A DNA stretch of 49,156 nt from positions 1 through 49,156 of the forward strand of contig JBKHXZ010000166.1 of assembly GCA_046565785.1 (NCBI GenBank). Direction: 5' to 3'. This DNA is from Acidimicrobiia bacterium. GTDB lineage: Bacteria > Actinomycetota > Acidimicrobiia > Spongiisociales > ZC4RG35. Numbering within the stretch: position 1 is the stretch's first letter; the number at the start of each line of letters is the position of its first letter. The notes under the pieces were generated by a model. The model ran no database searches, had not been told where the DNA came from, and saw only the letters and a list, made by a program, of their open reading frames with translations. This document shows, piece after piece, positions 20,560 through 47,299 of this stretch. A program made the translations under genes and the position numbers.

Positions 20560-20740
20560 GATCGGCTAGCGTGAGGTCGTCCGCTCTTCGGAGCGGTGCC
20601 GTTGGCAGCAGCGAAGTCCGGAACCAACCGGCGCTGTCCCGCAACTGTGAACTCCTTCGGGGGTGAGCCAGGTCGCCTGGTGCCACGGCGCAGACGAAGC
20701 CTCGGATGAAGGTGTAGTCCGCCGGCGAGACCGCCGTCGA
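20560..20740 (+). promoter_or_regulatory. Cobalamin (AdoCbl) riboswitch
   Basis: The 223-nt leader before the btuF-like gene contains 'GCGAAGTCCGGAACCAACCGGCGCTGTCCCGCAACTGTGA' followed by the B12-box-like 'GTGAGCCAGGTCGCCTGGTGCC'. These match the conserved core of RF00174-type elements. The boundaries are approximate. Confidence 0.8.
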
Positions 20741-32167: not shown

Positions 32168-33739
32168 TCACCGGGCTGCGGCCGCGGCAGTGTCCACTCT
32201 CGGATCGGCCGCCCCGGTCCGCAACCCGTTCCCCTCGACTGTGATGAGTGAAACCGGGCCCCAGCCCGGCATACGCTCTGCCTGGATGCGGATCGTGTGT
32301 CCCCGCCGGTGGAGACCGTCGATGATCTGATCCGACATGCCGGACTCGACGTCCACCGTCGACCGAGGGGCGGACACATCGGACATGACCCAGCGCGGGT
32401 GGTGCTGCGCCGCTCCCGGCGAACGGCCGGCGGCGAAGAGCAGTGCGGCGACCTGGGCAAGCAACTGTGGTTGCTGATGCCCGCCCCTGGTTCCGAGCAC
32501 GGCACGCAAGCTCGGACCGTCGGTCCAGATGGTGGGTGCCAGGGTATGGAGCGGGCGCTTCCCGGGGGCGATCTCGTTGGGATGACCCGACCGCAGATCG
32601 AAGCCACCGCCGCGATCGTGCAGGATGAAGCCGCTGTCGCCGGCGCCGATACCCGAGCCGATACCACGGAAGTTCGACTCGATGAGGGAGACGCCCAATC
32701 CTTCTCCGTCGACGACCGCCAAGTACATGGTTCCGCCTGGACGGCGTTCGATGGGTGGCCTCAGGACCGACGAGTCGGGTTCGATGTCAGCGGCCAGCTC
32801 CATCAACCGTTCCAGCACCAAGAGTTCGTCGTTGGGGAGCGGAGCATGTCGAGGGTCGGCGACGACATCGTCTCGTTCGGCCACCACCGCCCGATAGGCC
32901 TCGATCATCGTGTGAGCCCAACGCGGGTCGCCGGGGTCGGTGGTCGGGCTCAGCTTCTCGAAGAGCTGCAGGGTGGCGAGCGTCAGATACCCCTGGCTGT
33001 TCGGGGGGATGGTCCACCCTGTCAACCCGAACACATCGGCGGCGATGGGCATGACCCACTCTGGCTGGTAGGTGGCCAGGTCGTCAGCGGTGATGAGTCC
33101 GCCGACAGCCCGGCTGATCGAACCGGCTACCTCGCCCTCATAGAAGGCGTCCGGCCCGTCCTCCCCGATCGCCTCCAGGGTCGCCGCCAAGTTGGGACGC
33201 CGTACGCGATCCCCGCGCTGGGGTGGCCTGCCGTCCACCAGCAGTTGGGCACCGGCTTCGTGTTCGGCGAGGAACTCGTGCATGCGGTGGGTTGCTCGGG
33301 TGTATTCGGTCGACGCCGGGAACCCGTCTCGTCCGAGTTCGATGGCGCGGCGGAGGAGCGATCGCATCGGTAAGCGCCCGTGGCGTGCGTGCATCGCGAA
33401 CCAGCCACGGACACAGCCCGGGATGGTGACCGAGGCAGGGTGATGTTGGGGAAGTGCCGTCAGGCCTTCCTCTCGGAGCCGGTCGGCTGACACCTGCGAG
33501 CCGGCTCCCCCCGAGGCGTTGAGTGCGGTGACTTCCGCCTGATGGTGGATGAGGGCGAAGAGGTCGCCACCGATTCCGCAGGTCTCCGGCGCCACCAATC
33601 CCTGCACGGCGTTGGCAGCGATGGCGGCATCCACCGCCGAGCCGCCTTGGGCCAGGACGTCCATCCCCGCCTGAGTGGAAAGCACGTGCGGCGTGACCAC
33701 CACCCCGTCGTATCCCTGAGCTTCGCGCATGATCTGCAT
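32168..33739 (-). CDS. ggt: Gamma-glutamyltransferase family protein
   Basis: 523 aa. 'AGGSAVDAAIAANAVQGLVAPETCGIGGDLFAL', the autoprocessing-site context 'GGTMYLAVVD' (Thr nucleophile) and 'GSGIGAGDSGFILHDRG'. Confidence 0.9.
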   Translation of the reverse strand: MQIMREAQGYDGVVVTPHVLSTQAGMDVLAQGGSAVDAAIAANAVQGLVAPETCGIGGDLFALIHHQAEVTALNASGGAGSQVSADRLREEGLTALPQHHPASVTIPGCVRGWFAMHARHGRLPMRSLLRRAIELGRDGFPASTEYTRATHRMHEFLAEHEAGAQLLVDGRPPQRGDRVRRPNLAATLEAIGEDGPDAFYEGEVAGSISRAVGGLITADDLATYQPEWVMPIAADVFGLTGWTIPPNSQGYLTLATLQLFEKLSPTTDPGDPRWAHTMIEAYRAVVAERDDVVADPRHAPLPNDELLVLERLMELAADIEPDSSVLRPPIERRPGGTMYLAVVDGEGLGVSLIESNFRGIGSGIGAGDSGFILHDRGGGFDLRSGHPNEIAPGKRPLHTLAPTIWTDGPSLRAVLGTRGGHQQPQLLAQVAALLFAAGRSPGAAQHHPRWVMSDVSAPRSTVDVESGMSDQIIDGLHRRGHTIRIQAERMPGWGPVSLITVEGNGLRTGAADPRVDTAAAAAR

Positions 33740-33819
33740 GTTGGCACGGGTGGGGTGTGCCCGTCAGAGCGTCGAACCTGCGTTCGTTTCTTGTCACACC
33801 CGTTGGGTACGTTGGGTTC

Positions 33820-34917
33820 ATGTTCGAGACAGGTCCGGTGACGGGGACGATCGACGAGTTGGAGCAGGATTTCGCCCGGTTGACGGCGGCGATGTCCCGG
33901 TTGGATGCGCTCCGGCTTGGGGTGCTCCGCCAGTTGGACGTCGCCCAGGTCGCCACCGCCGACGGTGCCCGCAGCCTGGTCGAATGGCTTTCGGGCCGTT
34001 TCGATCTGGAAGCTGACACCGCCCGAAGGCTGGTCGGTCTAGCCCGGGCAGCCGATGCCGAGATCGAGGGACTGCTCGAATCCGGTGAGGTGACCACCGA
34101 TCGGGCGGCGGCTGTGGTCGGGTTGAAGAACGCCGGTGCCGACCAGAACACCGTAGACCGGTCCTGGTCCCATGATCTTGCCGGTGTCCGTCGGATGGCT
34201 GCGGCGCACCGTCGGATCACCTCCTCCGACGAGTCGGACGCCTATGACGCCCGCTATCTGCATACCCAACCGACCTTGGACGAGTCCTCTTGGAGGTTCT
34301 GGGGACAGCTCACCGGCACCGACGGCCACATCGTGGACAAGGCGTTACGCACCGCGATCGACAGTCTCCCCGACAATCCGGACACCACCGCATCCCAAGA
34401 CCGGGCAGACGCCCTGGTAGCAGTGGCGTCCGAATGGCTGTCCGGGGAGATCGGCGGACACCAGCTGACAGCCGACATCTTCATCGACGGTTCTCTCGCC
34501 GTCGCCACCGGCGGGGAGGCAGGAGCGATGGTGGCCGGTGATGTCCGAGTAGGACCGAACACCCTGTCCGAGATCCTGTGTGCCGGCACCGTTCGCATCA
34601 ACTTTCAAGACGAACACGGTGTCGTTTCCACCTCGCCGTCGTCACGGGCGATCCCGGGAGCGGTACGGAACCGGGTACTGCATCGGGACGGGCATCGGTG
34701 TGTGATCGCCGGCTGCAACTCCCGTTCCCGGCTTCAACCCCACCATCTGATCCCTTACGCCCAGGGTGGGAGCCATCATCCGGACAACCTGGTCACCGTG
34801 TGCTGGTATCACCATCATGTCGTCATCCACCAGCAAGGCAGACGGATCGACCCCAACTCCCCGCCCCAACGGCGGACGTTCATCCGGGAGTCCGATCCCG
34901 CCCGGGCCGGACCCTGA
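33820..34917 (+). CDS. DUF222-type HNH endonuclease (actinobacterial 13E12-repeat-like family)
   Basis: The N-terminal helical region 'RLDALRLGVLRQLD...ADGARSLVEWL' is typical of DUF222. The C-terminal HNH is 'HRDGHRCVIAGC...LQPHHLIPYAQGGSHHPDNLVTVCWYHHHVVIH'. The start is taken at the ATG at 33820. Confidence 0.85.
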   Translation: MFETGPVTGTIDELEQDFARLTAAMSRLDALRLGVLRQLDVAQVATADGARSLVEWLSGRFDLEADTARRLVGLARAADAEIEGLLESGEVTTDRAAAVVGLKNAGADQNTVDRSWSHDLAGVRRMAAAHRRITSSDESDAYDARYLHTQPTLDESSWRFWGQLTGTDGHIVDKALRTAIDSLPDNPDTTASQDRADALVAVASEWLSGEIGGHQLTADIFIDGSLAVATGGEAGAMVAGDVRVGPNTLSEILCAGTVRINFQDEHGVVSTSPSSRAIPGAVRNRVLHRDGHRCVIAGCNSRSRLQPHHLIPYAQGGSHHPDNLVTVCWYHHHVVIHQQGRRIDPNSPPQRRTFIRESDPARAGP

Positions 34918-34964
34918 ACTGGCACCGTCACAACCCCCGACCACCCATCCGAAACACCGTATCC

Positions 34965-34979
34965 GGCCCCTCGCGGGCC
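34965..34979 (+). terminator. Weak GC hairpin downstream of the HNH gene (possible terminator)
   Basis: GGCCC-CTCGC-GGGCC is followed by TTCT. The stem is only 5 bp and there is no real U-tract. Confidence 0.2.
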
Positions 34980-35034
34980 TTCTCGTCGTGGGGCTGTGGT
35001 GCCGTGGGGTACTCCGCTGCCGACGGCCGGTTGA

Positions 35035-35634
35035 TCAGAGGATCCGCGCCCGATGTTGGCGCGAACGCCGCACCCTGGGAGGGCCGCTCAACATGGTGCG
35101 GGTGACTACGAAAAGCTGGGCTGTGACGAAGGCGTCGGCGAGGGCATGGTGGGGCACGCCCGGAGGGATCCCGTAACGAACCGCGCACGCCGACAAGGTC
35201 TCATGCGGATCCCGGGGTCGTCCCAATCGGCTGTCCAACTCCTTCACCAAGTCCCGGACGTCGATCATGCGCCGCTCCCACCTGCGACGTCGCCCTCCGA
35301 GGGTGGCGGCCAGGAACGAGGTCTCCACCCAGGCCGACCAGACCACCAGTGGGTGATCGCCCAGGATCCTCTCGAACTCGTACAGCGTATCCGCACGAGG
35401 GGACGCCACCGCCAGGTCTGCTGGGCGCAACTGGTGGATGCGGACGACATCGACCCCGACAGGCTTCGACGACCGCATTACCCGGTAGGTACTCCGGTCC
35501 ATTCGCACCATGCCGTCGACGATCGGGACCGTCCCGAAGGAGAGGATCACGTCGTGGCGAGGGTCGAGTCCGGTCGTTTCCAGATCCAGCGCGATCAGGG
35601 GACCGGGTCCGATCGGAGCGGGCGGAGGTGTCAT
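35035..35634 (-). CDS. DEDDh 3'-5' exonuclease (DnaQ/epsilon-like)
   Basis: Exo I 'LIALDLETTGLD' and Exo III 'HHALADAFVTAQLF'. The start is taken at the ATG at 35634, which overlaps the upstream gene's stop (ATGA). Confidence 0.8.
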   Translation of the reverse strand: MTPPPAPIGPGPLIALDLETTGLDPRHDVILSFGTVPIVDGMVRMDRSTYRVMRSSKPVGVDVVRIHQLRPADLAVASPRADTLYEFERILGDHPLVVWSAWVETSFLAATLGGRRRRWERRMIDVRDLVKELDSRLGRPRDPHETLSACAVRYGIPPGVPHHALADAFVTAQLFVVTRTMLSGPPRVRRSRQHRARIL

Positions 35635-37448
35635 CGGCCGAGGATGCGGGGTGCGAGCCGATTGGCCAGATCTGCCTGGACCTGCCGGACGATGCGAAAC
35701 GCCTGCTTCAGTGAACCCCGGTCGATCGGCCCCAGGCTGTCCGGGTCGATCAGGTTGCTCGGTGCCCGTCCAGCGGTCCATTCACTGACCTGGTTCTGCA
35801 GCCGGAGGTCCCCCAAGAACTCGAACGCCTCCTCCAGGGCATCGGCGTGGTCGGGGGAGAGAGCGCCGGCGGTGGCGGCAGCACGCAGCCGCGCTGGAGT
35901 CTCCAGCTCGAACCTGCCGGCGCGCAGGGCGTGTACCCGCGCCAGTTCGGTGATCGGAAGGATCCCGCCCGTTTTGAGGTCCAGGACGCCCTCTCGTCCA
36001 TTCACGTCGTGAGGCGCCAGGCCGCCGAGCCACCCCAACGGGGGGCGGGCCTCGAGCGCCAACCGTTCCAGTCGCTGCAGGAACCCGGGTTGGTTGCCGG
36101 CCTCCTCGGCGGCGATGGCGAACAACCTGTCGACGGCGAGGTCGCCGGTGACGTGCCGCACATCGAATGCGACCCCGGTCAGGAAAGCCGCCACCCGGTC
36201 TGGCTTTGTCATCCAGTCACGCATGCGTCGTTCCCACCACGACTCGGTCCCACGCCAGCCTTCCTCGCTGGCCATCACTTTCGACTGGCACCTCGGAATT
36301 CCCGCCGACTCGAGTCCGGTCGCCACGAACCTGGCAAGCCGAAGGAAGTACCCGTCGTGGTCTTCGGCAGAGTCGGCGTAAACCAGGGCGTGGTCCTGGT
36401 CGGTCACCAACCCCTGCTCTCTCCGGCCGGCCGAACCGAGCGCTAGCCAGGCGAAGGGAGCGGGGGCCACACCCAGAGCCTCCTGACCGAGTTCGAGCAG
36501 TCGGATGGTGAGAGCGTCGATCAGGACCGACACCACCTTCCCAGCATGCCCGGCGTCGACCCCGCCCTGGACGAGGGCGGCCACCGCCTCCGGAATCGTT
36601 CGACCCGCAGTCGCCACCTGCTCGACGTCGTTCGCCTGCTGGATCTGCGAGCGCAGTCGGGACGAGTCACGACGTTCGAGCCCGAGCAGGTCCAGATCGC
36701 TGAGCATGGCGACCACCATTCCGTGGCTGTCGACCACCGGCAGGTGGTGGACGCCCGATTCGAGCATCGTGAGTAATGCTTCGGAGACGAGCGAGGAACG
36801 GGTGATGGTGATTGCATCCGGCGTCGAGACCTGCGCGATCGGCGCCGAGACATCGGTTCGCGCGGCTACGACCCGGGTGCGGAAGTCACGGTCGGTGACG
36901 ATGCCCGGCCGGTCGGCGAATCGGACCACCGCGGCGGACGCAGATGCGGCCGTCATCCGGCGGGCGACCGATTCGATGGCCTCGTCAGGGTCGGCGAACA
37001 CCAACGGTCCCCGCGCGACGTCCTCGACGAGCGGTTGGGAGGAAGCCCGGTGAGCGGGCATCCGGCGCGAACGCAGCGTCTCGACCAGAAACCGGATACC
37101 GGTTGGGGCTCCGAGAACGTGAACTGCCACCGAACGGTCGAACAGATAACACAAAGCGTCCTCGGTGATCCGGACTGTGTACTCCGGTGAAGCTCCGGAC
37201 AGCAGGGAGGGGAACCCGAAGGCTTCACCTTCTTCCAGGCGATCGACGATTGTGTCCCCGTCGACCAACTCCGCACGTCCGCGGCGCAGGAGGTACAGGA
37301 ATTTGGAAGCCCGACCGCCCTGTTCGAGAACCACTGTCCCGGTGGGGAAGAAGTCGACGATCACCGACGAGGCGAGTCCGGCGAGGACGTGGTCGGGAAG
37401 GCCCCGGAATGGAGCGTGCGCAGCCAGGAAGCGCTCTACTTCCAGCAC
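35631..37448 (-). CDS. cNMP-binding / tandem-CBS / DUF294 nucleotidyltransferase signal-transduction protein
   Basis: 605 aa. It has an N-terminal cyclic-nucleotide-binding fold ('GEAFGFPSLL') and two CBS modules ('IVTDRDF', 'HHLPVVDSHGMVVAMLSDLDLL'). The Pol-beta-type NTase motif is 'LGSAGRREQGLVTDQDHALVY', followed by a helical DUF294_C-like tail. Confidence 0.85.
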   Translation of the reverse strand: MLEVERFLAAHAPFRGLPDHVLAGLASSVIVDFFPTGTVVLEQGGRASKFLYLLRRGRAELVDGDTIVDRLEEGEAFGFPSLLSGASPEYTVRITEDALCYLFDRSVAVHVLGAPTGIRFLVETLRSRRMPAHRASSQPLVEDVARGPLVFADPDEAIESVARRMTAASASAAVVRFADRPGIVTDRDFRTRVVAARTDVSAPIAQVSTPDAITITRSSLVSEALLTMLESGVHHLPVVDSHGMVVAMLSDLDLLGLERRDSSRLRSQIQQANDVEQVATAGRTIPEAVAALVQGGVDAGHAGKVVSVLIDALTIRLLELGQEALGVAPAPFAWLALGSAGRREQGLVTDQDHALVYADSAEDHDGYFLRLARFVATGLESAGIPRCQSKVMASEEGWRGTESWWERRMRDWMTKPDRVAAFLTGVAFDVRHVTGDLAVDRLFAIAAEEAGNQPGFLQRLERLALEARPPLGWLGGLAPHDVNGREGVLDLKTGGILPITELARVHALRAGRFELETPARLRAAATAGALSPDHADALEEAFEFLGDLRLQNQVSEWTAGRAPSNLIDPDSLGPIDRGSLKQAFRIVRQVQADLANRLAPRILGR

Positions 37449-37473
37449 GTCGGCCAGGGTATCGGCCGCGCCG

Positions 37474-38187
37474 CTACGCGTCGGTGGGTGTGTCGAGGAA
37501 CGACCGAATCCAGGAGGCCACGAGCGGGCGGTCGGGCTGGCTGCTCAGCGTGCCCAACGCCGCGTCCACCACATCGTGATCGATTACCTTCCCCCGGCGC
37601 CGTTCCATCTGTGCCCGGGCGAACGCAGGGATGAACTCGGGATGGCCCTGTATTCCGAGCACGTGATCGCCGTAGGCGAGCACGGAGATGGGACAGTGTT
37701 CGCTGGAGGCGAGGATGCGGATGCCTTCCGGCGGCTCCACGATCTGGTCGGCGTGGCTGTGCACCAGGCGGAACCGGTCGGCGGGCGGATCCATCCAGGG
37801 GGCGTGTTCGTGAACCTCGACCTCACGCACCCCGATAGCCCATCCCTGCGGCGCCCGCTCCACCTTTCCGCCCAGCGCCTGGCCGATCATCTGGTGGCCG
37901 AAGCAGATACCCACCAGCTTTCGCCGTTCCGCCACGAGATCTCGGACCAGGCGCTCGAGCTGGCGGATCCACGGCACGTCGTCGTAGACCGAATGGACCG
38001 AACCGGTGATGATCCATCCGTCGCATTCTTCGCCGGACTCCGGGAAGTGGCCCTGTGTGAGATCGTATGGGACGAGTTCCAAGTCGGGGTGTGCGGCGAG
38101 CAGTTCGGCGAACATGTCGGGATAGTCGCCGGCCAGGCCGGCCAGTTCCTCAGGCGCGTGGTCACAGATCAGCAGCCCGACCCGCAT
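37474..38187 (-). CDS. Class I glutamine amidotransferase-like protein (candidate gamma-glutamyl-amide hydrolase)
   Basis: 237 aa with the nucleophile elbow 'LVGICFGHQMI' and 'GIQGHPEF' His. It starts 1 nt after the ALDH stop. Confidence 0.8.
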   Translation of the reverse strand: MRVGLLICDHAPEELAGLAGDYPDMFAELLAAHPDLELVPYDLTQGHFPESGEECDGWIITGSVHSVYDDVPWIRQLERLVRDLVAERRKLVGICFGHQMIGQALGGKVERAPQGWAIGVREVEVHEHAPWMDPPADRFRLVHSHADQIVEPPEGIRILASSEHCPISVLAYGDHVLGIQGHPEFIPAFARAQMERRRGKVIDHDVVDAALGTLSSQPDRPLVASWIRSFLDTPTDA

Positions 38188-38188
38188 G

Positions 38189-39628
38189 TCAGCGCTCGGC
38201 GATGAACACGGACTTGTACTCGGAATAGTGGTCGAGCGCCGCCATTCCCTGTTCCCGGCCGATGCCGGACTGCTTCACCCCGCCGAATGGGGCTTCGATG
38301 TGCACCGAGGACGACGAGTTGATCGACAGCATGCCGGTCTCGACCGCCCGCGCCACCCGCAGGGCCCGGCCGATGTCTCGCGTCCACACCGAGCCGGACA
38401 GCCCGTAGATGGAATCGTTGGCCATCCTGATCGCCTCATCCTCGTCTCCGAACGCGGCCACGGCGACCACCGGCCCGAAGATCTCTTCCTGCATGATCCG
38501 CATGTCGGTTCGCACCCCCGAGAACACCGCCGGGGTGAGGAACGAGCCGGGATGGGGTAGCCGTTCCCCTCCGCACACCAGCCGGGCGCCTTCCTGTTCG
38601 CCGATCTGAAGGTACTGCTCGACCGAGTCGCGATGAGAAGCGGTGATCAGTGGCCCCATCTCGGTGGCTTCGTCCCGGGTATCTCCCACCACCAGTGTTC
38701 GAGCACGATGGGTGAAGCGTTCCAGGAACTCGTCGTGGATCGACCGTTCCACCAGCACCCGGCTGCGGGCACAGCAGTCCTGGCCGGCGTTGTCGTACAC
38801 GGCGAAGATCGAAGATTCGACGCACACGTCGAGGTCGGCGTCGGCGAAGACGATCGAGGCCGACTTGCCACCCAGTTCGAGCGACACCCGTTTGATCCCT
38901 TCGGCCGCCTGACGCATCACTCCCGCACCCACCGTGGTGGAGCCGGTGAACGAGATCTTCCGCACCAGCGGGTGGGTCACCAGCATCTCGCCCAACTCCG
39001 ATCCCTTGCCCGGTACGACCCCTAGCACCCCAGCGGGAAGCCCGGCTTCGGTTGCTAGTTCTGCCAACGCCAGGGCAGTGAGCGGGGTGACTTCCGCCGG
39101 CTTCAAGACCACGGAATTGCCCATGGCCAGGGCCGGGGCGACCTTCCAGGAGGCGATCAGCATGGGGAAGTTCCATGGGGTGATCGCTACGCACACTCCC
39201 AGCGGTTCCCTGAAAGTGAGGAGGGTGCCGGCGGCCTGCGATGGGATCGTCTCGCCTCTCACCTTGTCGACGGCTCCGGCGTAGTAATCGAAAACGGTGG
39301 CCACCGCCCCGATCTCGCCGCGGGCGGTGGCGATCGGCTTGCCGGCGTTGGAGGATTCGAGTGACGCCAACCGCTCCTGATCCCGGCGTACCAGGTCGGC
39401 GATTCGACGGAGCACGTCTCGCCGCTCGCGTACCGGGGCCCGCCGCCACACGCCCGATTCGTAGGCGCGATGTCCGGTTCGGATGGCATGGTCGACCGCC
39501 GCCGGGCCTGAACGCGCCACCCGTGCCAGGTCCTGGCCGCTCGCCGGATCGGTGATGACCGTTTCGCCGTCTGCACGATCCGGCTGATGGCTGCCGTCGA
39601 TGAATGGTCCCAGCACCACAGCGCTCAT
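38189..39628 (-). CDS. NAD(P)-dependent aldehyde dehydrogenase
   Basis: From the ATG at 39628: 'VVLKPAEVTPLTAL', catalytic Glu 'ELGGKSA', catalytic Cys 'GQDCCARSR' and 'EEIFGPV'. ATGA overlap with the SDR stop. Confidence 0.9.
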   Translation of the reverse strand: MSAVVLGPFIDGSHQPDRADGETVITDPASGQDLARVARSGPAAVDHAIRTGHRAYESGVWRRAPVRERRDVLRRIADLVRRDQERLASLESSNAGKPIATARGEIGAVATVFDYYAGAVDKVRGETIPSQAAGTLLTFREPLGVCVAITPWNFPMLIASWKVAPALAMGNSVVLKPAEVTPLTALALAELATEAGLPAGVLGVVPGKGSELGEMLVTHPLVRKISFTGSTTVGAGVMRQAAEGIKRVSLELGGKSASIVFADADLDVCVESSIFAVYDNAGQDCCARSRVLVERSIHDEFLERFTHRARTLVVGDTRDEATEMGPLITASHRDSVEQYLQIGEQEGARLVCGGERLPHPGSFLTPAVFSGVRTDMRIMQEEIFGPVVAVAAFGDEDEAIRMANDSIYGLSGSVWTRDIGRALRVARAVETGMLSINSSSSVHIEAPFGGVKQSGIGREQGMAALDHYSEYKSVFIAER

Positions 39629-40398
39629 TCGGGAGTGACGTAGGCGGCGGTGATCCCGCCGTCGACCACGAAGTCTGCACCGGTCACGAACGACGATTCG
39701 TCCGAGGCCAGCCACAATGCCGCCCGTGCCATCTCCGCGGCCTCACCGAAGCGTCCCATCGGAATGTGAACGAGTCGGCGCTGACGCTTCTCTTCGGTGT
39801 CCAAGAACTTCATGAGCAGTTCGGTGTTGAGCGGTCCGGGACACAGCGAGTTGACCCGAATGTTCTCCCGGGCGTGGATGACGGCCAACTCCCTCGTCAT
39901 CGCCAGCACCGCACCCTTGGAAGCGGTGTAGGCGATCTGCGGTGTGGCCGCCCCGAGCAGGGCGACGAATGACGCGGTGTTGATGATCGACCCTCCTCCC
40001 GCCCTGCGCAGGGCGGGGATCCCGTGCTTGCATCCCAGGAACACGCCTTTGGCGTTGATCGAGAGGGTCAGATCCCAGATGTCTTCGGCGGTACCGACAG
40101 CGTCGTCGTCGGCGGAATGCATGATCCCGGCGTTGTTGAACATCACGTCGAGCTTGCCGAAGGAGTCTTCTGCTGCTTCCACCATGGCCCGGCAGTCGGC
40201 ATCCCGGGAGACGTCGGCTTGAACCGCTATTGCGTTGCCGCCGGCCGCCTGCACCGCCTCCACCGTGGAAACGGCCGTGTCGTGATCAACGTCGACCGCC
40301 ACCACCGACGCTCCTTCGGCGGCGAACAACAGGGAAGCCTCCCGTCCGATGCCCGAACCTGCCCCGGTGATGAGGGCCACCTTGCCTGCGAGTCTCAT
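39625..40398 (-). CDS. Short-chain dehydrogenase/reductase (SDR)
   Basis: 257 aa with 'GKVALITGAGSGIGRE' (TGxxxGxG), 'NNAGI' and 'YTASKGAV' (YxxxK). Confidence 0.9.
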   Translation of the reverse strand: MRLAGKVALITGAGSGIGREASLLFAAEGASVVAVDVDHDTAVSTVEAVQAAGGNAIAVQADVSRDADCRAMVEAAEDSFGKLDVMFNNAGIMHSADDDAVGTAEDIWDLTLSINAKGVFLGCKHGIPALRRAGGGSIINTASFVALLGAATPQIAYTASKGAVLAMTRELAVIHARENIRVNSLCPGPLNTELLMKFLDTEEKRQRRLVHIPMGRFGEAAEMARAALWLASDESSFVTGADFVVDGGITAAYVTPE

Positions 40399-40406
40399 TT
40401 CTCCCC

Positions 40407-41780
40407 TCAGATCCGCTCGAAGTATCGCCAGCGTTCCCAGTCGGTGACGGCGTTGTCGTAGGCGGTCGCCTCTTCTTCGAAGAAATGCAGGTAATGCTCC
40501 TTGACCGCCTCCCCGAACGCGTCGGTCACGAAGTCGCTGGCAGCGAAGGCGTCGATGGCTTCCCGCAGGGTGTGTGGGACTCGCGGCAGGTCGGCGGCCT
40601 GGTAGACGTCGCCGGAGAACATCGCCGGTGGTTCGATCTGGTTGGCGATTCCGTCCAGACCCGCCGCCATCGCCGCCGCATAGGCCAGGTAGGGGTTGGC
40701 GTCCGCGCCCGGCACCCGGCATTCGATCCGCAGGGACGGTCCGTGGCCCACCACCCGAAAGCCGGCCGTGCGGTTGTCGTAGCTCCAGGCGATGCGCACC
40801 GGCGCCCAAGACGCGTTCTGGAACCGCTTGTACGAGTTCACCGTCGGCGCGAAGAACACCATCAACTCGGTCAGATGCGCCATCCACCCGCCGAGAAACC
40901 AGCGGAACTCGTTCGAGGCGGCCACCTCCCCGAACATCTGGTCGCCGGCGAAGACGTTTCGTTCCCCATCCCACAGCGAGAGATGCAGGTGACACGACGA
41001 GCCTGCCTCCGAGGCGTGCGGTTTGGCCATGAACGTGATGCTCACTCCCTGCAGTTCGGCGATCTCTTTCATGGCGAGCTTCATGATCGTGTGCCGGTCC
41101 GCCATGGGGAGCAGCTCGGTGTAGCGGATGTTCATCTCGTGCTGGCCCCGACCCCATTCGCCTTTCGAGTTCTCCACGGGGATGCCAGAACGGGCCAGGT
41201 GCCGCCGGACGGCGCCGTTGAAGCCCTCCTCCCGGGTTCCCTGCAGCAGGTGATAGTCCTCGATGTACCACCCGGCCGGGGTGAGGTCGTGGTAGCGGCG
41301 TTCGGCCGCCTGGCGATAGCTGTCCTCGTAGAGGAAGTATTCGAGTTCCGACGCCCCCTTCGGGGAAAAGCCGAGTTGGGCTGCCCGGTCGAGTTGCCGG
41401 CGGAGAATCGAACGCGGGGCGACCTCCACCGGATGTTCAGCGTCACCGAGGTCGCACAAGACCAGCGCGGTGCGATCGAGCCAGTCGGCGACCCGCAGCG
41501 TCGACAGGTCGGGAACCATGTGGAAGTCGCCGTACCCCAACTCCCAGTTGGCGTAGCGGTACCCGGGAACCGGCTCCATCTCCATGTCGACGGTCAAGAG
41601 GTAGTTGCAGCCGTGCGTCCCGTGGTCGTGTACCTCCTCGAGGAAGAAGGCGGCGTCGAAGCGCTTGCCATGCACGCGCCCGTAGTGGTCGGTGAAGCCG
41701 ACCACTACGGTGTCGATCACCTCGGCGGCCACCAGGTCGCTCAACTCGGCGAGACTCAACATCCCTCTCGGGTTCCCCAT
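40407..41780 (-). CDS. Glutamine synthetase-family gamma-glutamyl-amine ligase (GlnA3/GlnA4/PuuA-like)
   Basis: 457 aa from the ATG at 41780, preceded by AAGGAGG. The GS type-I-like catalytic blocks are 'KGASELEYFL', 'NSKGEWGRGQHEMN', 'AKPHASEAGSSCHLHLSLW' and 'NSYKRF'. It lacks an obvious adenylylation-loop context. Confidence 0.9.
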   Translation of the reverse strand: MGNPRGMLSLAELSDLVAAEVIDTVVVGFTDHYGRVHGKRFDAAFFLEEVHDHGTHGCNYLLTVDMEMEPVPGYRYANWELGYGDFHMVPDLSTLRVADWLDRTALVLCDLGDAEHPVEVAPRSILRRQLDRAAQLGFSPKGASELEYFLYEDSYRQAAERRYHDLTPAGWYIEDYHLLQGTREEGFNGAVRRHLARSGIPVENSKGEWGRGQHEMNIRYTELLPMADRHTIMKLAMKEIAELQGVSITFMAKPHASEAGSSCHLHLSLWDGERNVFAGDQMFGEVAASNEFRWFLGGWMAHLTELMVFFAPTVNSYKRFQNASWAPVRIAWSYDNRTAGFRVVGHGPSLRIECRVPGADANPYLAYAAAMAAGLDGIANQIEPPAMFSGDVYQAADLPRVPHTLREAIDAFAASDFVTDAFGEAVKEHYLHFFEEEATAYDNAVTDWERWRYFERI

Positions 41781-41839
41781 GCATCCTCCTTGTTCCAGGG
41801 CCTCCCGGGTCTCCCCCGGGAGGCCCTGTTCGATCGTCC

Positions 41840-43342
41840 TCAGCGCAGTTCCTGCTCCGCCTCTCGGACGAGGGCGTGTTCTTCCTCCGGGGACTGGGCG
41901 ACCAGACGGTGCCGGCTGAATCCCCAGTAGTAGCCGAACATGATCAGCACGAAGATGCCGGTGCCGATGACTCCCGGACGGTTCTCGGCGATGGCGAGGG
42001 TGGCGACCAGTGTGATCAGCGAGATCACCGTCCCCACCACTGCGCCAGGAACGCCGAGCGGACTCTTGTAGGGCCGATCCAGGTCTGGGCGGGTCCACTT
42101 CAACTGGACGTAGGTGATCATCACCAGCGAGTACGAGATGACCGCTCCGAAGACCGCCATCGTCAGAAGCGATGCTCCGACGATGCCCTCGCCGAAGAAC
42201 TGGATCACGACGGCGACGCCGAACCCGACGACCGCCCCCAGGATGAGGGCCCGGTGTGGGGTCTTGCGGCTGGAAGTCACCGAGATGCCGCGGGGGATGT
42301 AGCCCGAGCGAGACGCAGCGAACAACACCCGACCGTAGGCGTAGATGATCGAATGGAACGAGGCGATCAGCCCGGTGAGAGCGATGAAGGTCAGCACCTG
42401 GGTGGCAAAGCCCGCGCCGAATACCGCCCGGAATCCTGCTTCCAGCGGTGCACCGGACAGACCGATCTCGAGGGCGCCGCCGGCCACACCGGTGTTGAGC
42501 ACCAGGGTCAGCACCGACAGGATCAGCAGGGTGACGATGCCCCAGATCAGTGCCTTGGGCATGTCCTTCACCACGTCGTGGGACTCTTCGGCTGCCAGGG
42601 GTAGTTGTTCGATCGCCAGGTAGAACCAGATGGCGAACGGGAGGGCGGCAAAGATTCCGAACCAACCCTTGGGGAGGAACTCGGAAGCTCCGGCCCGTGC
42701 GGTGTCTGCGGGGATGTTGGTGAGCAGCGCCGGATCGAAGGCCCCTGAGACGAGTGCTCCGATGTAGAACACCGCCAGGATCGCCATCGACGCCAGCGTC
42801 ACCACCAACGCCACCTTGAACGTGAGTTCAGTTCCCCACACGTTGATCCCCACGAAGATGCCGTAGAAGATCAGCCACCACACGATGTTGGCGCCTGCAT
42901 CCCCGAAGATCCCGGAGAGATCGAGCAGCGAGTTGGCGTATCCGGAGATGCCCACGACGATCACCGCCGGGGTGATCACGTACTCCACCATGTCGGTGAC
43001 GCTGTTGAAGTAGGCGAGACCCGGTCCGTAGGCGTTGCGGGTGAAGCCGTAGAAGCCACCCGCATGGGGGAGTGCGGTCGACATCTCGGCGATCGACAAC
43101 ACCATGCACACGAACATGATCGCGATGAACACGGTGGCGATCAGTAGCCCGCCGAAGCCGCCCGCATCCAGTCCGAAGTTCCAGCCGAAGAAGTCGCCCG
43201 AAATGACCGCTCCCACGCCGAGCGCCCACAACAGCACCCAGCCGGCGCTTCTCTGCAACTGACGTTGGTCCAGGTACGACTTGTCGACGTTCTCGTACGT
43301 CGCTCCCTTGACTCTGAGTTTCCCGTCACTGCCTTGAGTCAT
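41840..43342 (-). CDS. APC-superfamily amine permease, ethanolamine-permease-like
   Basis: The N-terminal block 'SYLDQRQLQRSAGWVLLWALGVGAVISGDFFGWNFGL' and 'SIAEMSTALPHAGGFYGF' resemble the ethanolamine permease (Eat) family, and there are ~12 TM segments. The ATG at 43342 has a GAGAGGA SD; a GTG at 43360 is an in-frame alternative. Confidence 0.85.
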   Translation of the reverse strand: MTQGSDGKLRVKGATYENVDKSYLDQRQLQRSAGWVLLWALGVGAVISGDFFGWNFGLDAGGFGGLLIATVFIAIMFVCMVLSIAEMSTALPHAGGFYGFTRNAYGPGLAYFNSVTDMVEYVITPAVIVVGISGYANSLLDLSGIFGDAGANIVWWLIFYGIFVGINVWGTELTFKVALVVTLASMAILAVFYIGALVSGAFDPALLTNIPADTARAGASEFLPKGWFGIFAALPFAIWFYLAIEQLPLAAEESHDVVKDMPKALIWGIVTLLILSVLTLVLNTGVAGGALEIGLSGAPLEAGFRAVFGAGFATQVLTFIALTGLIASFHSIIYAYGRVLFAASRSGYIPRGISVTSSRKTPHRALILGAVVGFGVAVVIQFFGEGIVGASLLTMAVFGAVISYSLVMITYVQLKWTRPDLDRPYKSPLGVPGAVVGTVISLITLVATLAIAENRPGVIGTGIFVLIMFGYYWGFSRHRLVAQSPEEEHALVREAEQELR

Positions 43343-43668
43343 GTTGTCCTCTCTTGTCACGATTGGTGGCGCGTGCGCGCCATGACGAGAGCGACGGGAT
43401 CACGGGGGATCGCGCGACGGGCGGCGGTCGGCGAGGTCGTGCAACCTCGTGCCCGCTGTTCCGTGGCGCATGGCTTCTCCTCCGCCTGGGGTGGTACGTG
43501 CGGTTGGAACGGGTCCATCGGGATCCCTCCGGCAGCCCACCCGCTCACCCATCCGAACGGCGGATGCGACTGTACGGCCCAGATCGCGGTCGCGTCGCCT
43601 TCGGGACCGGGAAATTTCCGGCGAATCCCATCACCCCCGCGGTGCGCCGGTACCGGTAGCTTGGCCTC

Positions 43669-44577
43669 GTGCGTCGCTATCGCGGATCGATCTCCGACAA
43701 TGCCCGCTGGGATGGCTTCGAATTCCGGGCGGACGACATCGTCATCTGTACTCCGGCGAAGTGTGGGACGACGTGGATGCAGACGATGGTGGCGACCCTG
43801 GTGTTTTCCTCGGTCGAGCTGCCCGCCCCCGTCGGCCACCTGTCACCTTGGCTCGACATGGTCACCCGGCCGGTGGACGAAGTCCACCAGAGGCTGGCCG
43901 TACAGACCCATCGCCGATTCATCAAGACCCACACCCCTTTCGACGGCCTGCCCTACGACGAGCAGGTGACCTACATCGCCGTGCTGCGTCATCCGCTCGA
44001 TGTGGCGTTGTCGATTCGGGATCACCGGCGGACCATCGACCGTGACCGCATTCGTGACCTGGTCGCCGGGGTGGATCCGGACATCATCACGACATGGGTG
44101 GACATCGACCAGCCCGAGGACGAGGCCCACTACCTGCGATGGTGGGTCGACTTCGACGAGGACGTGTGGAGCCAGGGGGTCTCCGGGTTGGGGGAGTTCG
44201 CCCGGCACGCCCGCACCTACTGGGAGGCACGGCACCTCCCCAACGTGACGCTCTTCCACTACGACGACCTGGTGGCCGATCTTCACGCGCAGATGACCCG
44301 CCTGGCAGATGTCCTCGGGGTCGAGGTCGATCCACCGCGGATGAGCGAGTTCGTGGAGGCGGCGAGGTTCGACGCGATGCGCTCTCGTGCGGCTCTCACC
44401 GTTCCGGACTCCGACATCACCGCGTGGAGGGTTCCGGAGACCTTTTTCAGTACCGGGGGCCGCCGGGCATGGGGGACGCTGCTCTCGGATGCGGACGTCG
44501 CCCGCTTCCGGGTTCGCCTGCGTGAGTTGGCTGGCAACGACCTCGCCGGCTGGTTGGACCGCGAATGCGAACCCTGA
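43669..44577 (+). CDS. PAPS-dependent sulfotransferase, cytosolic SULT (Sulfotransfer_1)-like
   Basis: 302 aa. The 5'-PSB loop 'TPAKCGTTWMQ', the catalytic-His context 'FIKTHTPF' and the 3'-PB motif 'LRHPLDVALS' parallel PKSGTTW / KTHLP / RNPKDVxVS of eukaryotic SULTs. GTG start. Confidence 0.8.
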   Translation: MRRYRGSISDNARWDGFEFRADDIVICTPAKCGTTWMQTMVATLVFSSVELPAPVGHLSPWLDMVTRPVDEVHQRLAVQTHRRFIKTHTPFDGLPYDEQVTYIAVLRHPLDVALSIRDHRRTIDRDRIRDLVAGVDPDIITTWVDIDQPEDEAHYLRWWVDFDEDVWSQGVSGLGEFARHARTYWEARHLPNVTLFHYDDLVADLHAQMTRLADVLGVEVDPPRMSEFVEAARFDAMRSRAALTVPDSDITAWRVPETFFSTGGRRAWGTLLSDADVARFRVRLRELAGNDLAGWLDRECEP

Positions 44578-44733
44578 TCAGGCTTCCGGCTTCTTCCGGC
44601 GGCCGAACAGCCAGGCGACCGCACCTCCGAGGGAGGCCAGGCCGGCCAGCCCCAAGCGCTTCCGCCACTTGGAGGGAGACGGTGCCTGATCTGCCGGAGT
44701 CGGGTCTTCGGTGGGTTGTGATTCGTCGGTCAT
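44578..44733 (-). CDS. Possible 51-aa tail-anchored small membrane protein
   Basis: My own translation, too short for the supplied track: MTDESQPTEDPTPADQAPSPSKWRKRLGLAGLASLGGAVAWLFGRRKKPEA. It has an acidic N-terminus and one C-terminal TM helix flanked by K/R. I found no homology support. Confidence 0.3.
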   Translation of the reverse strand: MTDESQPTEDPTPADQAPSPSKWRKRLGLAGLASLGGAVAWLFGRRKKPEA

Positions 44734-45898: not shown

Positions 45899-47299
45899 TC
45901 AGGCGGCCGCCTCGATCAGCTTCCACAGTCGGTCGACGTGTTCGTCCGAGGTGAGGGTCGACCCGATCGCCACGCGGACGAACAGCTTGCCGTCGATGGT
46001 CGACGGGACCACATAGGAAGTTCCGGTCACGTTGACCGCCTCGACGATCCGGGCGGTGGCGTCGTCGCCGTCGACATGACGGAACGACACCAGCCCGAAC
46101 ACGGTGGGAGCTACCAGTTCCAATCGGGGATGAACCTCGACCTGTTCCGACAGGCCTCGCGCCAGCTCGACATGGTGCCGGATGTAGGACCGGAGCCCTT
46201 CGGCTCCGTAGTGGCGGAGGACGAACAAGAGTTTCAGCGCCCGGAACCGCCGGCCGAGCGGGACATGCCAGTCCCGATAGTCGATCACCTCACCCCGGTC
46301 TGACGGAGCGTTGCGCAGGTAGGGGGGAACGATGCGCATGGTTTCGATCAGCGGACGGCGGTCGGCGACCCAGAACACCGAGCAGTCGAAGTTGGTCAGC
46401 AGCCACTTGTGCGGGTTGAACGTGAACGAATCCGCCAGTTCGACTCCGTTGGCCTGGTGGCGGAACTCCGGACAGATCAAGGCGCTGCCGGCGTAGGCGG
46501 CATCCACGTGGAACCACAAGTCCTCGGCCCGGGCGACCTCGCCGATCGCCCGCAGCGGATCGACCGCAGTCGTGGCGGTGGTGCCGAGCGCCCCGCACAC
46601 GAACAGTGGGGTGAGTCCAGCCCGGCGATCGGCGGCCACAGCGTCCCGCAGCGCGTCGGGGGACAGCGCGTAGGTGAGGTCGGTGTCGATCAGCCGGACG
46701 TGGCCGATCCCGGCGACGTTCGCCCCCTTTTCGATCGAGGAGTGAGCCTGAGTGGAGGCGTAGACCACCATCGACGACGGGTCGATGCCGTGCCGACGAG
46801 CGCGCGCTATCACGATCGCCGTGTGAGTGGAATCCGATGCGCTCATCTGCAGTACCCCACCGCCCGGGCCGGTGGTTTTCCACCCCGACGGCATGCCGAG
46901 AAGATCCACCAACCAATCGAGCACGTGGCTTTCGATCTCGGTGGTAGCCGGCGAGGTTTGCCACAGCATTCCCTGCTGACCCAACCCGGAGGCGGCCAGG
47001 TCGCCGAGGATGGCCGGGAACGATACGTTGGCCGGGAAGTAGGCGAACCATCCCGGTGATTGCCAATGGGTGATGCCGGGCATCACCACCTGATCCAGGT
47101 CGGCGAGGATCGCTTCGAACGGTTCACCCTGTTCAGGCGGGTTGGCAGGGAGCGATGCCCGAATAGCGCCCGGTTCGATGTCGGAGACGATCCGGTGCCG
47201 GTCGACGGTTTCCCAATAGTCGGCGATCCAATCGATCAGTTCCTTGCCGTGGCGGCGGAACTGGTCCGGTGTCATATGCGCACTCACCGGCGTGACCAT
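45899..47299 (-). CDS. Group II PLP-dependent aromatic-L-amino-acid decarboxylase-like
   Basis: 466 aa. 'FRRHGKELIDWIADYW', 'GITHWQSPGWFAYFP', 'HVDAAYAGSA' and the PLP-Lys context 'FNPHKWLLTNFDCS'. An alternative ATG lies at 47275. Confidence 0.9.
   Translation of the reverse strand: MVTPVSAHMTPDQFRRHGKELIDWIADYWETVDRHRIVSDIEPGAIRASLPANPPEQGEPFEAILADLDQVVMPGITHWQSPGWFAYFPANVSFPAILGDLAASGLGQQGMLWQTSPATTEIESHVLDWLVDLLGMPSGWKTTGPGGGVLQMSASDSTHTAIVIARARRHGIDPSSMVVYASTQAHSSIEKGANVAGIGHVRLIDTDLTYALSPDALRDAVAADRRAGLTPLFVCGALGTTATTAVDPLRAIGEVARAEDLWFHVDAAYAGSALICPEFRHQANGVELADSFTFNPHKWLLTNFDCSVFWVADRRPLIETMRIVPPYLRNAPSDRGEVIDYRDWHVPLGRRFRALKLLFVLRHYGAEGLRSYIRHHVELARGLSEQVEVHPRLELVAPTVFGLVSFRHVDGDDATARIVEAVNVTGTSYVVPSTIDGKLFVRVAIGSTLTSDEHVDRLWKLIEAAA

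Follow-up and report, generated by a model that had tools for sequence, protein, structure and literature searches.

A compact gene cluster predicted to use ethanolamine by gamma-glutamylation in an uncultured Acidimicrobiia bacterium

A five-gene array and its products

We analysed a stretch of 49,156 nucleotides (hereafter the window; contig JBKHXZ010000166.1 of assembly GCA_046565785.1) from an uncultured Acidimicrobiia bacterium, which carries a compact gene array predicted to serve ethanolamine use by gamma-glutamylation. The window belongs to a metagenome-assembled genome of 2.75 Mb that is 93% complete, and the G+C content of the contig is 66%. The DNA runs holding most of the stretch are labelled as soil metagenomes, and its relatives in public records carry Acidimicrobiia titles; one of the loci compared here, L035, is the same stretch as that of genome G014. 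The list of open reading frames (ORFs) and their translations place five co-directional genes on the minus strand, between positions 37474 and 43342. Their junctions, each read directly, measure 59 nt, 8 nt, -4 (an ATGA overlap) and 1 nt in transcription order, exactly as given in a preliminary description of this DNA. Profile searches of the window proteins against Pfam and NCBIfam agree with the five families named there: an APC permease of the ethanolamine transporter (Eat) kind, a glutamine synthetase (GS)-like ligase, a short-chain dehydrogenase/reductase (SDR), an aldehyde dehydrogenase (ALDH) and a protein with the fold of class I glutamine amidotransferases (GATase). The reading proposed at that stage, gamma-glutamylation of ethanolamine, is supported by the clade of the ligase, the loss of its ammonium site, the family of the permease, the catalytic motifs and synteny.

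The ligase (457 aa) matches PF00120 with 323 bits and scores below the NCBIfam cut-offs of the GlnA type I GS (TIGR00653), the type III GS (TIGR03105) and NF007006; the PuuA equivalog NF045547 gives 226.8 bits against a cut-off of 650. In sequence, the closest solved relatives are 11zs (467 bits) and then 5dm3 (383 bits over the full length), while structures of true GS and of gamma-glutamylmethylamide synthetases (GmaS) reach at most 173 bits. In a fold search run on an AlphaFold model of the ligase (pTM 0.81), 11zs is entitled a Brucella melitensis glutamine synthetase paralogue and 5dm3 Csal_0679 of Chromohalobacter salexigens. The GS-family protein of C. salexigens has been named as the ethanolamine gamma-glutamylase of its pathway (PMC9397018 Table 2; PMC10132767). 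Streptomyces glnA4 genes served as the reference and were recognised by the RT-PCR primers published for this gene (Krysenko et al. 2019, PMC6529630), after a search of 400 genomes of the phylum and the extraction of loci from large genomes of a single genus. In two genomes, both primers for glnA4 match with 0 mismatches, inside the best match to the window ligase (49% identity). The SCO1612 and SCO1614 primers match the adjoining ALDH and regulator genes with 1-3 mismatches, and a spri_5940 primer matches exactly the adjoining permease gene in a third genome (L116).

To this reference we added GS-family genes from one Streptomyces and one Mycobacterium-type genome, together with E. coli GlnA and PuuA, and computed a maximum-likelihood tree of 42 GS-family proteins (quick IQ-TREE search). 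The window ligase, the primer-anchored Streptomyces glnA4 and the Mycobacterium-type homologues form a 29-row clade (SH-aLRT 99, branch 1.38), apart from GlnA1, GlnA2, two further paralogue groups (GlnA3-like included) and PuuA; the long PuuA and GlnA3-like branches are less certainly placed. The phylogenetic placement against GlnA1-4 and PuuA called for in the preliminary description thus puts the ligase with glnA4. Two well-supported subclades divide the GlnA4 clade, a Streptomyces/Mycobacterium type and a window type, the latter with members from Acidobacteriota, Chloroflexota, Bacteroidota, Planctomycetota, Deinococcales and several other groups at 60-75% identity.

Alignment with E. coli GlnA showed that the equivalents of E129, E131, E212, E220, H269, H271, R321, R339, R344, E357 and R359 are all kept in the ligase, while the ammonium-site and flap residues D50, S53, Y179, N264 and E327 are replaced by C58, P70, W171, A259 and W325; the D50 and S53 columns lie in the N-terminal, least certain part of this alignment. 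The same kind of ammonium-site loss is found in the primer-anchored Streptomyces glnA4 and in PuuA. Since the ligands of the metal, ATP and glutamate are kept and the ammonium site is lost, we assign the protein from its sequence to the gamma-glutamyl-amine ligases of the GlnA4 kind, that is, to the GlnA4/ethanolamine gamma-glutamylase clade, and not to the glutamine synthetases; its predicted product is gamma-glutamylethanolamide. That the protein might be a true glutamine synthetase had been named beforehand as an example of what would overturn the proposal, and the replaced ammonium-site residues speak against it. Only two other GS-family matches occur in the genome: a GlnA2-type, GSI-alpha-like protein (C34, L001), which keeps D50, S53 and Y179 and places with GlnA2 in the tree, and a weak, partial match (C12, L003). 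No GlnA1-type gene was seen in the 93%-complete assembly.

The permease (500 aa) belongs to the APC superfamily and there to the ethanolamine transporter type (Eat, TC 2.A.3.5). The ethanolamine permease profile TIGR00908 matches it with E 3.7e-110 and 368.8 bits, for a cut-off of 381.75, and the next family reaches 109 bits. It is 40-46% identical to the permeases beside glnA4 in the Streptomyces- and Mycobacterium-type loci, including 40% to the L116 gene matched by the spri_5940 primer; expression of spri_5940 leads to better growth on ethanolamine (PMC6529630). Identity to E. coli PuuP is only 19%. The permease is thus predicted to import ethanolamine.

The two dehydrogenases carry the motifs of their families. 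The SDR is of the classical type (257 aa; adh_short_C2, 218 bits), with TGAGSGIG at 11-18, D36 at the end of the second strand, NNAG at 88-91 and YTASK at 157-161, and is 53-56% identical to the SDR of the Streptomyces glnA4 loci. The ALDH (479 aa; PF00171, 590 bits) is NAD(P)-dependent and under every NCBIfam equivalog cut-off; it contains PWNFP, ELGGKS with the general base E251, and GQDCC with the catalytic C285. Its identity is 42% to E. coli PuuC and 50-54% to the ALDH of the Streptomyces- and Mycobacterium-type glnA4 loci, where the sco1612 primers match. The pairing of the two dehydrogenases, one for alcohol and one for aldehyde, is consistent with a substrate that bears a primary alcohol. 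We predict that the SDR is a gamma-glutamylethanolamide dehydrogenase and the ALDH a gamma-glutamylacetaldehyde (aldehyde-amide) dehydrogenase.

The last gene encodes a stand-alone class I GATase domain of 237 aa, which matches PF00117 only, and no Pfam match to Peptidase_C26 was obtained. Its best solved relative is the Arabidopsis gamma-glutamyl peptidase 1, GGP1 (9k7i; E 3e-23, residues 41-231), an enzyme that cleaves glutathione at its gamma-glutamyl isopeptide bond (PMC12958103). Alignment of the two proteins matches the nucleophile elbow GICFGHQ and the His/Glu motif GHPE; the variant 9k7l, as deposited, has an Asn in place of the motif His in the alignment. C95, H182 and E184 do not vary among 34 cluster-linked homologues. 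Neither PuuD nor the C26 proteins encoded in the Streptomyces- and Mycobacterium-type loci showed significant similarity to it: the hydrolase shares fold class and triad with the C26 type but belongs to a different subfamily. It is a predicted gamma-glutamylglycine hydrolase (deglutamylase).

Conserved linkage, putative control region and flanking genes

The same five-gene order is present in three genomes of the same genus (G003, G007 and G006). Within the order, a ligase match at E <= 1e-60 was found in 16 of the 41 genomes searched, the window's own genome counted, 15 of them at >=64% identity; most ligase-bearing genomes of the order with long enough contigs have the GS-SDR pair, and often the ALDH and GATase-fold genes too. 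In a sample of the phylum, 114 of 401 genomes gave a ligase match at E <= 1e-100, a tally that takes in the unpublished G128 and G159, whose sequences were used nowhere else. We also surveyed other phyla through the 80 best ligase loci of a species-representative collection, taken with 8 kb on either side; many of these contigs are short, and the counts are lower bounds. An SDR (68-82% identity to the window SDR) stands beside the ligase in 69 of the 80 loci, an ALDH of one of two types (59-75% or 30-36% identity) in 40, a GATase-fold protein in 25 and an APC permease in 20. The GATase-fold gene follows the ALDH gene in loci from Acidimicrobiia, Bacteroidota, Acidobacteriota and others. Because the gene order recurs in same-genus genomes and the GS-SDR pair in so many of the 80 loci, the five-gene arrangement is not due to chance.

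The second ALDH type is an observation in its own right. In Bacteroidota, Acidobacteriota and some others (L050, L053, L057, L060, L066, L068, L072 and further loci), the ALDH beside the GS-SDR pair is of a different subfamily, with matches of about 400 aa at the lower of the two identity ranges, whereas the SDR of the same loci stays at 68-79%. Where other-phyla loci have an ALDH and no GATase match, the next downstream ORFs showed no pattern that would point to an alternative deglutamylase: they encode an SDR, a halogenase-like flavoprotein, a GH88-like protein or Pta, or have no family.

The leader upstream of the permease gene contains a dyad and a short upstream ORF (uORF; Table 1). In an alignment with the three same-genus genomes, a GTGAC element and the ribosome-binding site are kept. 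G003 and G007 retain the dyad, though its centre varies, and in G006 it is less clear; it is a possible operator, and no regulator gene adjoins it. The window, G003 (L016) and G007 (L017) share the C-terminus of the uORF, RRPSR(D/S)PP-stop (RRPSRDPP-stop in the window), with third-base differences that are synonymous, while its N-terminal half varies among the three genomes; upstream of the permease gene, no such uORF was found in G006 or at eight more remote loci. A regulatory leader (stalling) peptide is a possible product of this uORF. The leader gave no Rfam match. A consensus scan of the coding strand found no sigma-70-like promoter and no U-tailed terminator, a result from which nothing can be concluded in an actinobacterium.

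Most of the 59-nt spacer between the permease and ligase genes is filled by a perfect hairpin (minimum free energy -36.8 kcal/mol, z -5.9), and hairpins of 11-14 bp with changed stem letters occupy the same position in G003, G007 and G006. It may act as an mRNA stabiliser, or as a partial terminator that sets the ratio of permease to enzymes. Actinobacterial terminators are frequently without U tails. When four rhizosphere metatranscriptome runs were compared with positions 34900-44700, they yielded short contigs only, a few of them near-identical to the window. These cover parts of the permease (42507-43561, contig extents) and of the ligase (40956-41217), and 41777-41971. The last extends from within the permease gene across the hairpin as far as the start codon of the ligase gene, which is compatible with read-through past the hairpin but weak as evidence; none of the contigs in the four runs joins two coding regions by at least 31 nt on each side. 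The junctions, tight or overlapping and with no terminator-like site on the coding strand, were counted for the operon reading, and a single transcript for the five genes is plausible.

The array continues past 37474: a gene with cNMP-binding, CBS and DUF294 domains lies 25 nt on and is followed by an ATGA-overlapping exonuclease gene. This pair adjoins the operon in G003 and G007 and stands on its other side, on the same strand upstream of the permease gene, in G006; none of the 80 loci from other phyla showed it next to the cluster. Among the loci examined, its association with the operon is restricted to this genus. It is possibly co-transcribed with the operon and regulatory. Family searches revealed no DNA-binding regulator among the window genes between 32171 and 48892.

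Two further genes of the window were considered and set aside. The gamma-glutamyltranspeptidase gene (TIGR00066, 302 bits, below the cut-off of 358) lies 1.3 kb past the exonuclease gene, from which a plus-strand DUF222-HNH gene separates it, and it does not stand beside the cluster in relatives; we do not count it as part of the pathway. The pyridoxal phosphate (PLP) decarboxylase gene was rejected as an ethanolamine-forming serine decarboxylase: it gives only weak, sub-threshold matches to diaminobutyrate/aspartate decarboxylases and is unlinked in relatives. A scan of the whole window at the Rfam gathering thresholds gave no match. Below them, a full-model match to the cobalamin riboswitch family AdoCbl (RF01482) was noted, with 35.8 bits for a gathering score of 50 (E 6.5e-05).

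Table 1. Positions of the array, its leader and other features in the window
Feature	Position	Strand	Remarks
Leader/putative control region upstream of permease gene	43343-43668 (326 nt)	-	Dyad and uORF
Upstream ORF, 23 codons	43400-43471	-	Own GGAGGAG Shine-Dalgarno; 57 nt before permease start
Dyad TGGCGCG-CA-CGCGCCA	43367-43382		~25-40 nt upstream of permease ATG
Eat-like APC permease gene	41840-43342	-	ATG with GAGAGGA before; AA_permease_2, TIGR00908
Perfect 14-bp GC-rich hairpin	41796-41828	-	No U tail; in permease-ligase spacer
GS-like ligase gene	40407-41780	-	Gln-synt_C (PF00120)
SDR gene	39625-40398	-	adh_short_C2
ALDH gene	38189-39628	-	Aldedh (PF00171)
GATase-fold protein gene	37474-38187	-	GATase (PF00117)
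cNMP-binding/CBS/DUF294 nucleotidyltransferase gene	35631-37448	-	Pfam
DEDDh exonuclease gene	35035-35634	-	Pfam; ATGA overlap with DUF294 gene
Gamma-glutamyltranspeptidase gene	32171-33763	-	TIGR00066, below cut-off
PLP decarboxylase gene	45902-47299		Sub-threshold family matches
AdoCbl-like match	20586-20725	+	RF01482, below gathering score

A predicted route from ethanolamine to glycine

The interpretation starts from what is observed at the locus, namely the gene set and its junctions, the families and clade of the products, their catalytic motifs, the ammonium-site loss of the ligase and the linkage across genomes, and from these it predicts the substrate, every reaction, co-transcription and regulation. 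We consider that the array is probably an operon for ethanolamine use by gamma-glutamylation. The Eat-type permease would import ethanolamine, and the ligase would join it to the gamma-carboxyl of glutamate at the expense of ATP, forming gamma-glutamylethanolamide. The free alcohol of this compound would be oxidised to the aldehyde by the SDR, and the ALDH would convert the gamma-glutamyl aldehyde into gamma-glutamylglycine. The GGP1-like hydrolase, with its Cys-His-Glu triad, would then cut the gamma-glutamyl bond, yielding glycine and regenerating glutamate. Overall, ethanolamine, ATP and 2 NAD(P)+ would be turned into glycine with no need for B12 or a microcompartment and no release of a free aldehyde. 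Candidates for regulation are the leader dyad and uORF, the intercistronic hairpin and the downstream DUF294 sensor pair.

Several points weigh against this interpretation. The ligase shares only about 49% of its residues with Streptomyces GlnA4 and belongs to the sister subclade, so its amine specificity could differ; ethanolamine activity in the window's subclade is a prediction. In M. tuberculosis, GlnA4 is only slightly active on ethanolamine while GlnA3 is efficient, as reported in a 2026 study (PMC13740247). The permease falls 13 bits under the TIGR00908 cut-off. The hydrolase is neither a peptidase C26, as in the Streptomyces and Mycobacterium clusters, nor of the PF05013 type of C. salexigens (PMC9397018), and its role is read from fold, motifs and position. 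As to transcription, the very stable hairpin between the permease and ligase genes could end part of the transcripts, and contigs from RNA libraries, which may hold DNA, are unable to prove a single transcript.

Some of these points would also suit the same chemistry acting on another primary amino alcohol or amine, such as 3-aminopropanol, 4-aminobutanol or a hydroxylated or substituted ethanolamine, with beta-alanine, gamma-aminobutyric acid (GABA) or another amino acid as the product. In addition to the distance between the window subclade and the assayed Streptomyces enzyme and the shortfall of the permease score, the ammonium-site replacements W171, A259 and W325 correspond to Q, E and F in Streptomyces, and the GS paralogues of mycobacteria overlap in amine specificity (PMC13740247). 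However, the characterised anchors of the clade, S. coelicolor GlnA4 (PMC6529630) as well as Csal_0679 and the Phaeobacter cluster (PMC10132767), all point to ethanolamine, and the sole strong family match of the permease is the ethanolamine permease. Moreover, ethanolamine is by far the commonest amino alcohol in soil and the rhizosphere, where it arises from phosphatidylethanolamine turnover. We regard another substrate as unlikely, and keep a modest chance for it because the assayed enzymes lie outside the window subclade, the pocket residues differ from those of Streptomyces GlnA4 and the M. tuberculosis GlnA4 result stands.

A module that mainly detoxifies or buffers intracellular ethanolamine or other amines from the cell's own phospholipid turnover, with a permease less central or not meant for ethanolamine uptake, appears improbable. 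The S. coelicolor cluster, which has no permease, may recycle intracellular ethanolamine, an excess of which is toxic (PMC6529630), and the hairpin after the permease gene could uncouple the levels of permease and enzymes; but the permease gene leads the operon, in the window as in all three same-genus relatives, and this suggests uptake. The reactions would in any case be the same for detoxification and for nutrition, and the two are not mutually exclusive. It is very improbable that the genes do not form one pathway at all, the GATase-fold protein being the glutaminase subunit of an unrelated amidotransferase and the GS-like protein a true or regulatory GS. Pfam calls the last gene 'GATase' only, its weaker matches are GMP synthase subunits, and such a gene lies within 8 kb of the ligase in only 25 of the 80 other-phyla loci. 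Yet it begins 1 nt past the ALDH stop and follows the ALDH gene in several phyla, its closest characterised relative is a gamma-glutamyl peptidase and not a synthase subunit, and no synthase partner is encoded nearby; the ligase, for its part, lacks D50, S53 and E327 and stays below all GS equivalog cut-offs.

We therefore retain ethanolamine catabolism by gamma-glutamylation as the probable function of the array, a reading for which homology, motifs and conserved linkage give good support. The type of pathway and its gene families were already proposed in 2015-2019, for Streptomyces and proteobacteria, and the array reveals no new kind of biology. Its wider meaning lies in distribution: B12-independent use of ethanolamine by gamma-glutamylation is probable for uncultured Acidimicrobiia and also for the related clusters of at least 10 other named lineages, and the ethanolamine set free by phosphatidylethanolamine turnover is among the major sources of nitrogen and carbon in soil and rhizosphere. 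As a compact, regulator-free set of five genes, the array is a candidate for the first biochemical proof of the post-ligase steps in Actinomycetota. What the array most usefully adds is the GGP1-like deglutamylase of a widespread subclade, a candidate gamma-glutamylglycine hydrolase. Judged by sequence, at least three unrelated or distantly related types of deglutamylase would serve the gamma-glutamyl ethanolamine pathway. More tentatively, the window may represent a distinct version of the pathway spread over many phyla, in which a GGP1 homologue was a further independent recruitment of a deglutamylase, and in which, in this genus, cis elements (uORF, dyad and hairpin) act in place of a GntR regulator and the DUF294/exonuclease pair could take part; this fuller picture is possible but doubtful.

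Comparison with known systems

The closest known system is the Streptomyces glnA4 cluster (SCO1610-SCO1615 and the versions of it with a permease), which has the same five protein families and the same proposed route to glycine and glutamate. Fig. 2 of PMC6529630 shows a cluster of a membrane protein, a short-chain dehydrogenase, an aldehyde dehydrogenase, glnA4, a regulator, a putative ethanolamine transporter and a glutamine amidotransferase. The Discussion of that paper leads from gamma-glutamylethanolamide to the aldehyde (SCO1611), to gamma-glutamylglycine (SCO1612) and to glutamate and glycine (SCO1615). Table 2 of PMC9397018 repeats these steps for SCO1611 (SDR), SCO1612 (ALDH) and SCO1615 (amidohydrolase), with PF00120, PF00465, PF00171 and PF05013 proteins as the C. 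salexigens equivalents. The Streptomyces assignments downstream of the ligase are bioinformatic and transcriptional, not biochemical (PMC6529630; PMC9397018). The preliminary description had held that the steps after the ligase were unassigned in actinobacteria, which is true of experiment only, since proposals for them had been published (PMC6529630, PMC9397018).

Compared with the Streptomyces cluster, the window proteins are 49% (ligase), 53-56% (SDR), 50-52% (ALDH) and 40-42% (permease) identical, and the ligases fall in one clade, within which the window subclade, spread over many phyla, is sister to the Streptomyces/Mycobacterium type. SDR and ALDH genes stand beside the ligase gene in both, in the window directly downstream (8 nt, ATGA). 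A permease gene is part of the glnA4 cluster in other Streptomyces, for example S. venezuelae and S. pristinaespiralis (PMC6529630). The gene order differs: the window has one co-directional array with the permease gene first. In Streptomyces L111, a GntR/FCD regulator gene (EpuRI, SCO1614; primers match) lies beside glnA4, whereas none is adjacent in the window. The hydrolase of the Streptomyces (L111) and Mycobacterium-type (L117:8283-9017) loci is a PuuD-like Peptidase_C26 (PF07722), in contrast to the GGP1-like PF00117 protein of the window; in Streptomyces the regulator gene adjoins that of the hydrolase (L111:10453-12011).

A gamma-glutamyl ethanolamine pathway is also described for proteobacteria, namely C. 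salexigens (Csal_0675-0681), A. tumefaciens and Phaeobacter (MED193_10026-10056), by Vetting et al. 2015 as cited in PMC10132767 and PMC9397018; the homologous Phaeobacter operon is induced on phosphoethanolamine (PMC10132767). The reaction sequence is the same, the ligase (Csal_0679) is homologous and an ALDH performs the second oxidation. The differences lie in uptake, by a TRAP transporter as opposed to the APC permease of the window, in the first oxidation, by an iron-dependent alcohol dehydrogenase (PF00465) as opposed to an SDR, and in the deglutamylase, of the formylglutamate-amidohydrolase family (PF05013) as opposed to a GATase-fold hydrolase (PMC9397018 Table 2; PMC10132767). The B12-dependent Eut pathway is a different solution. 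The preliminary description had reported no eutBC in the window, and EutB (PF06751) was not found even in the 93%-complete, and thus incomplete, genome, in a search whose E. coli control was positive.

The E. coli Puu pathway (PuuP, PuuA, PuuB, PuuC and PuuD) follows the same logic of import, gamma-glutamylation, oxidation with an ALDH and deglutamylation by a Cys-His-Glu GATase-fold enzyme. PuuA is 28% identical to the window ligase, and the window cluster has no PuuB-type oxidase but an SDR acting, as predicted, on the alcohol. The likeness to Puu is, on these sequence comparisons, one of analogy and not of orthology. Of the matches to known routes drawn in the preliminary description, that to GlnA4 holds (one clade, SH-aLRT 99), while that to Puu does not go beyond analogy; PuuD shows no significant similarity to the window hydrolase. 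For this last enzyme, the nearest characterised counterpart is GGP1 (PDB 9k7i; PMC12958103, PMC9804317), which like the window hydrolase is a stand-alone class I GATase fold. GGP1 acts on glutathione and its conjugates in the sulfur and glucosinolate metabolism of plants, whereas the window hydrolase is encoded in an amine-catabolic operon and has gamma-glutamylglycine as its predicted substrate.

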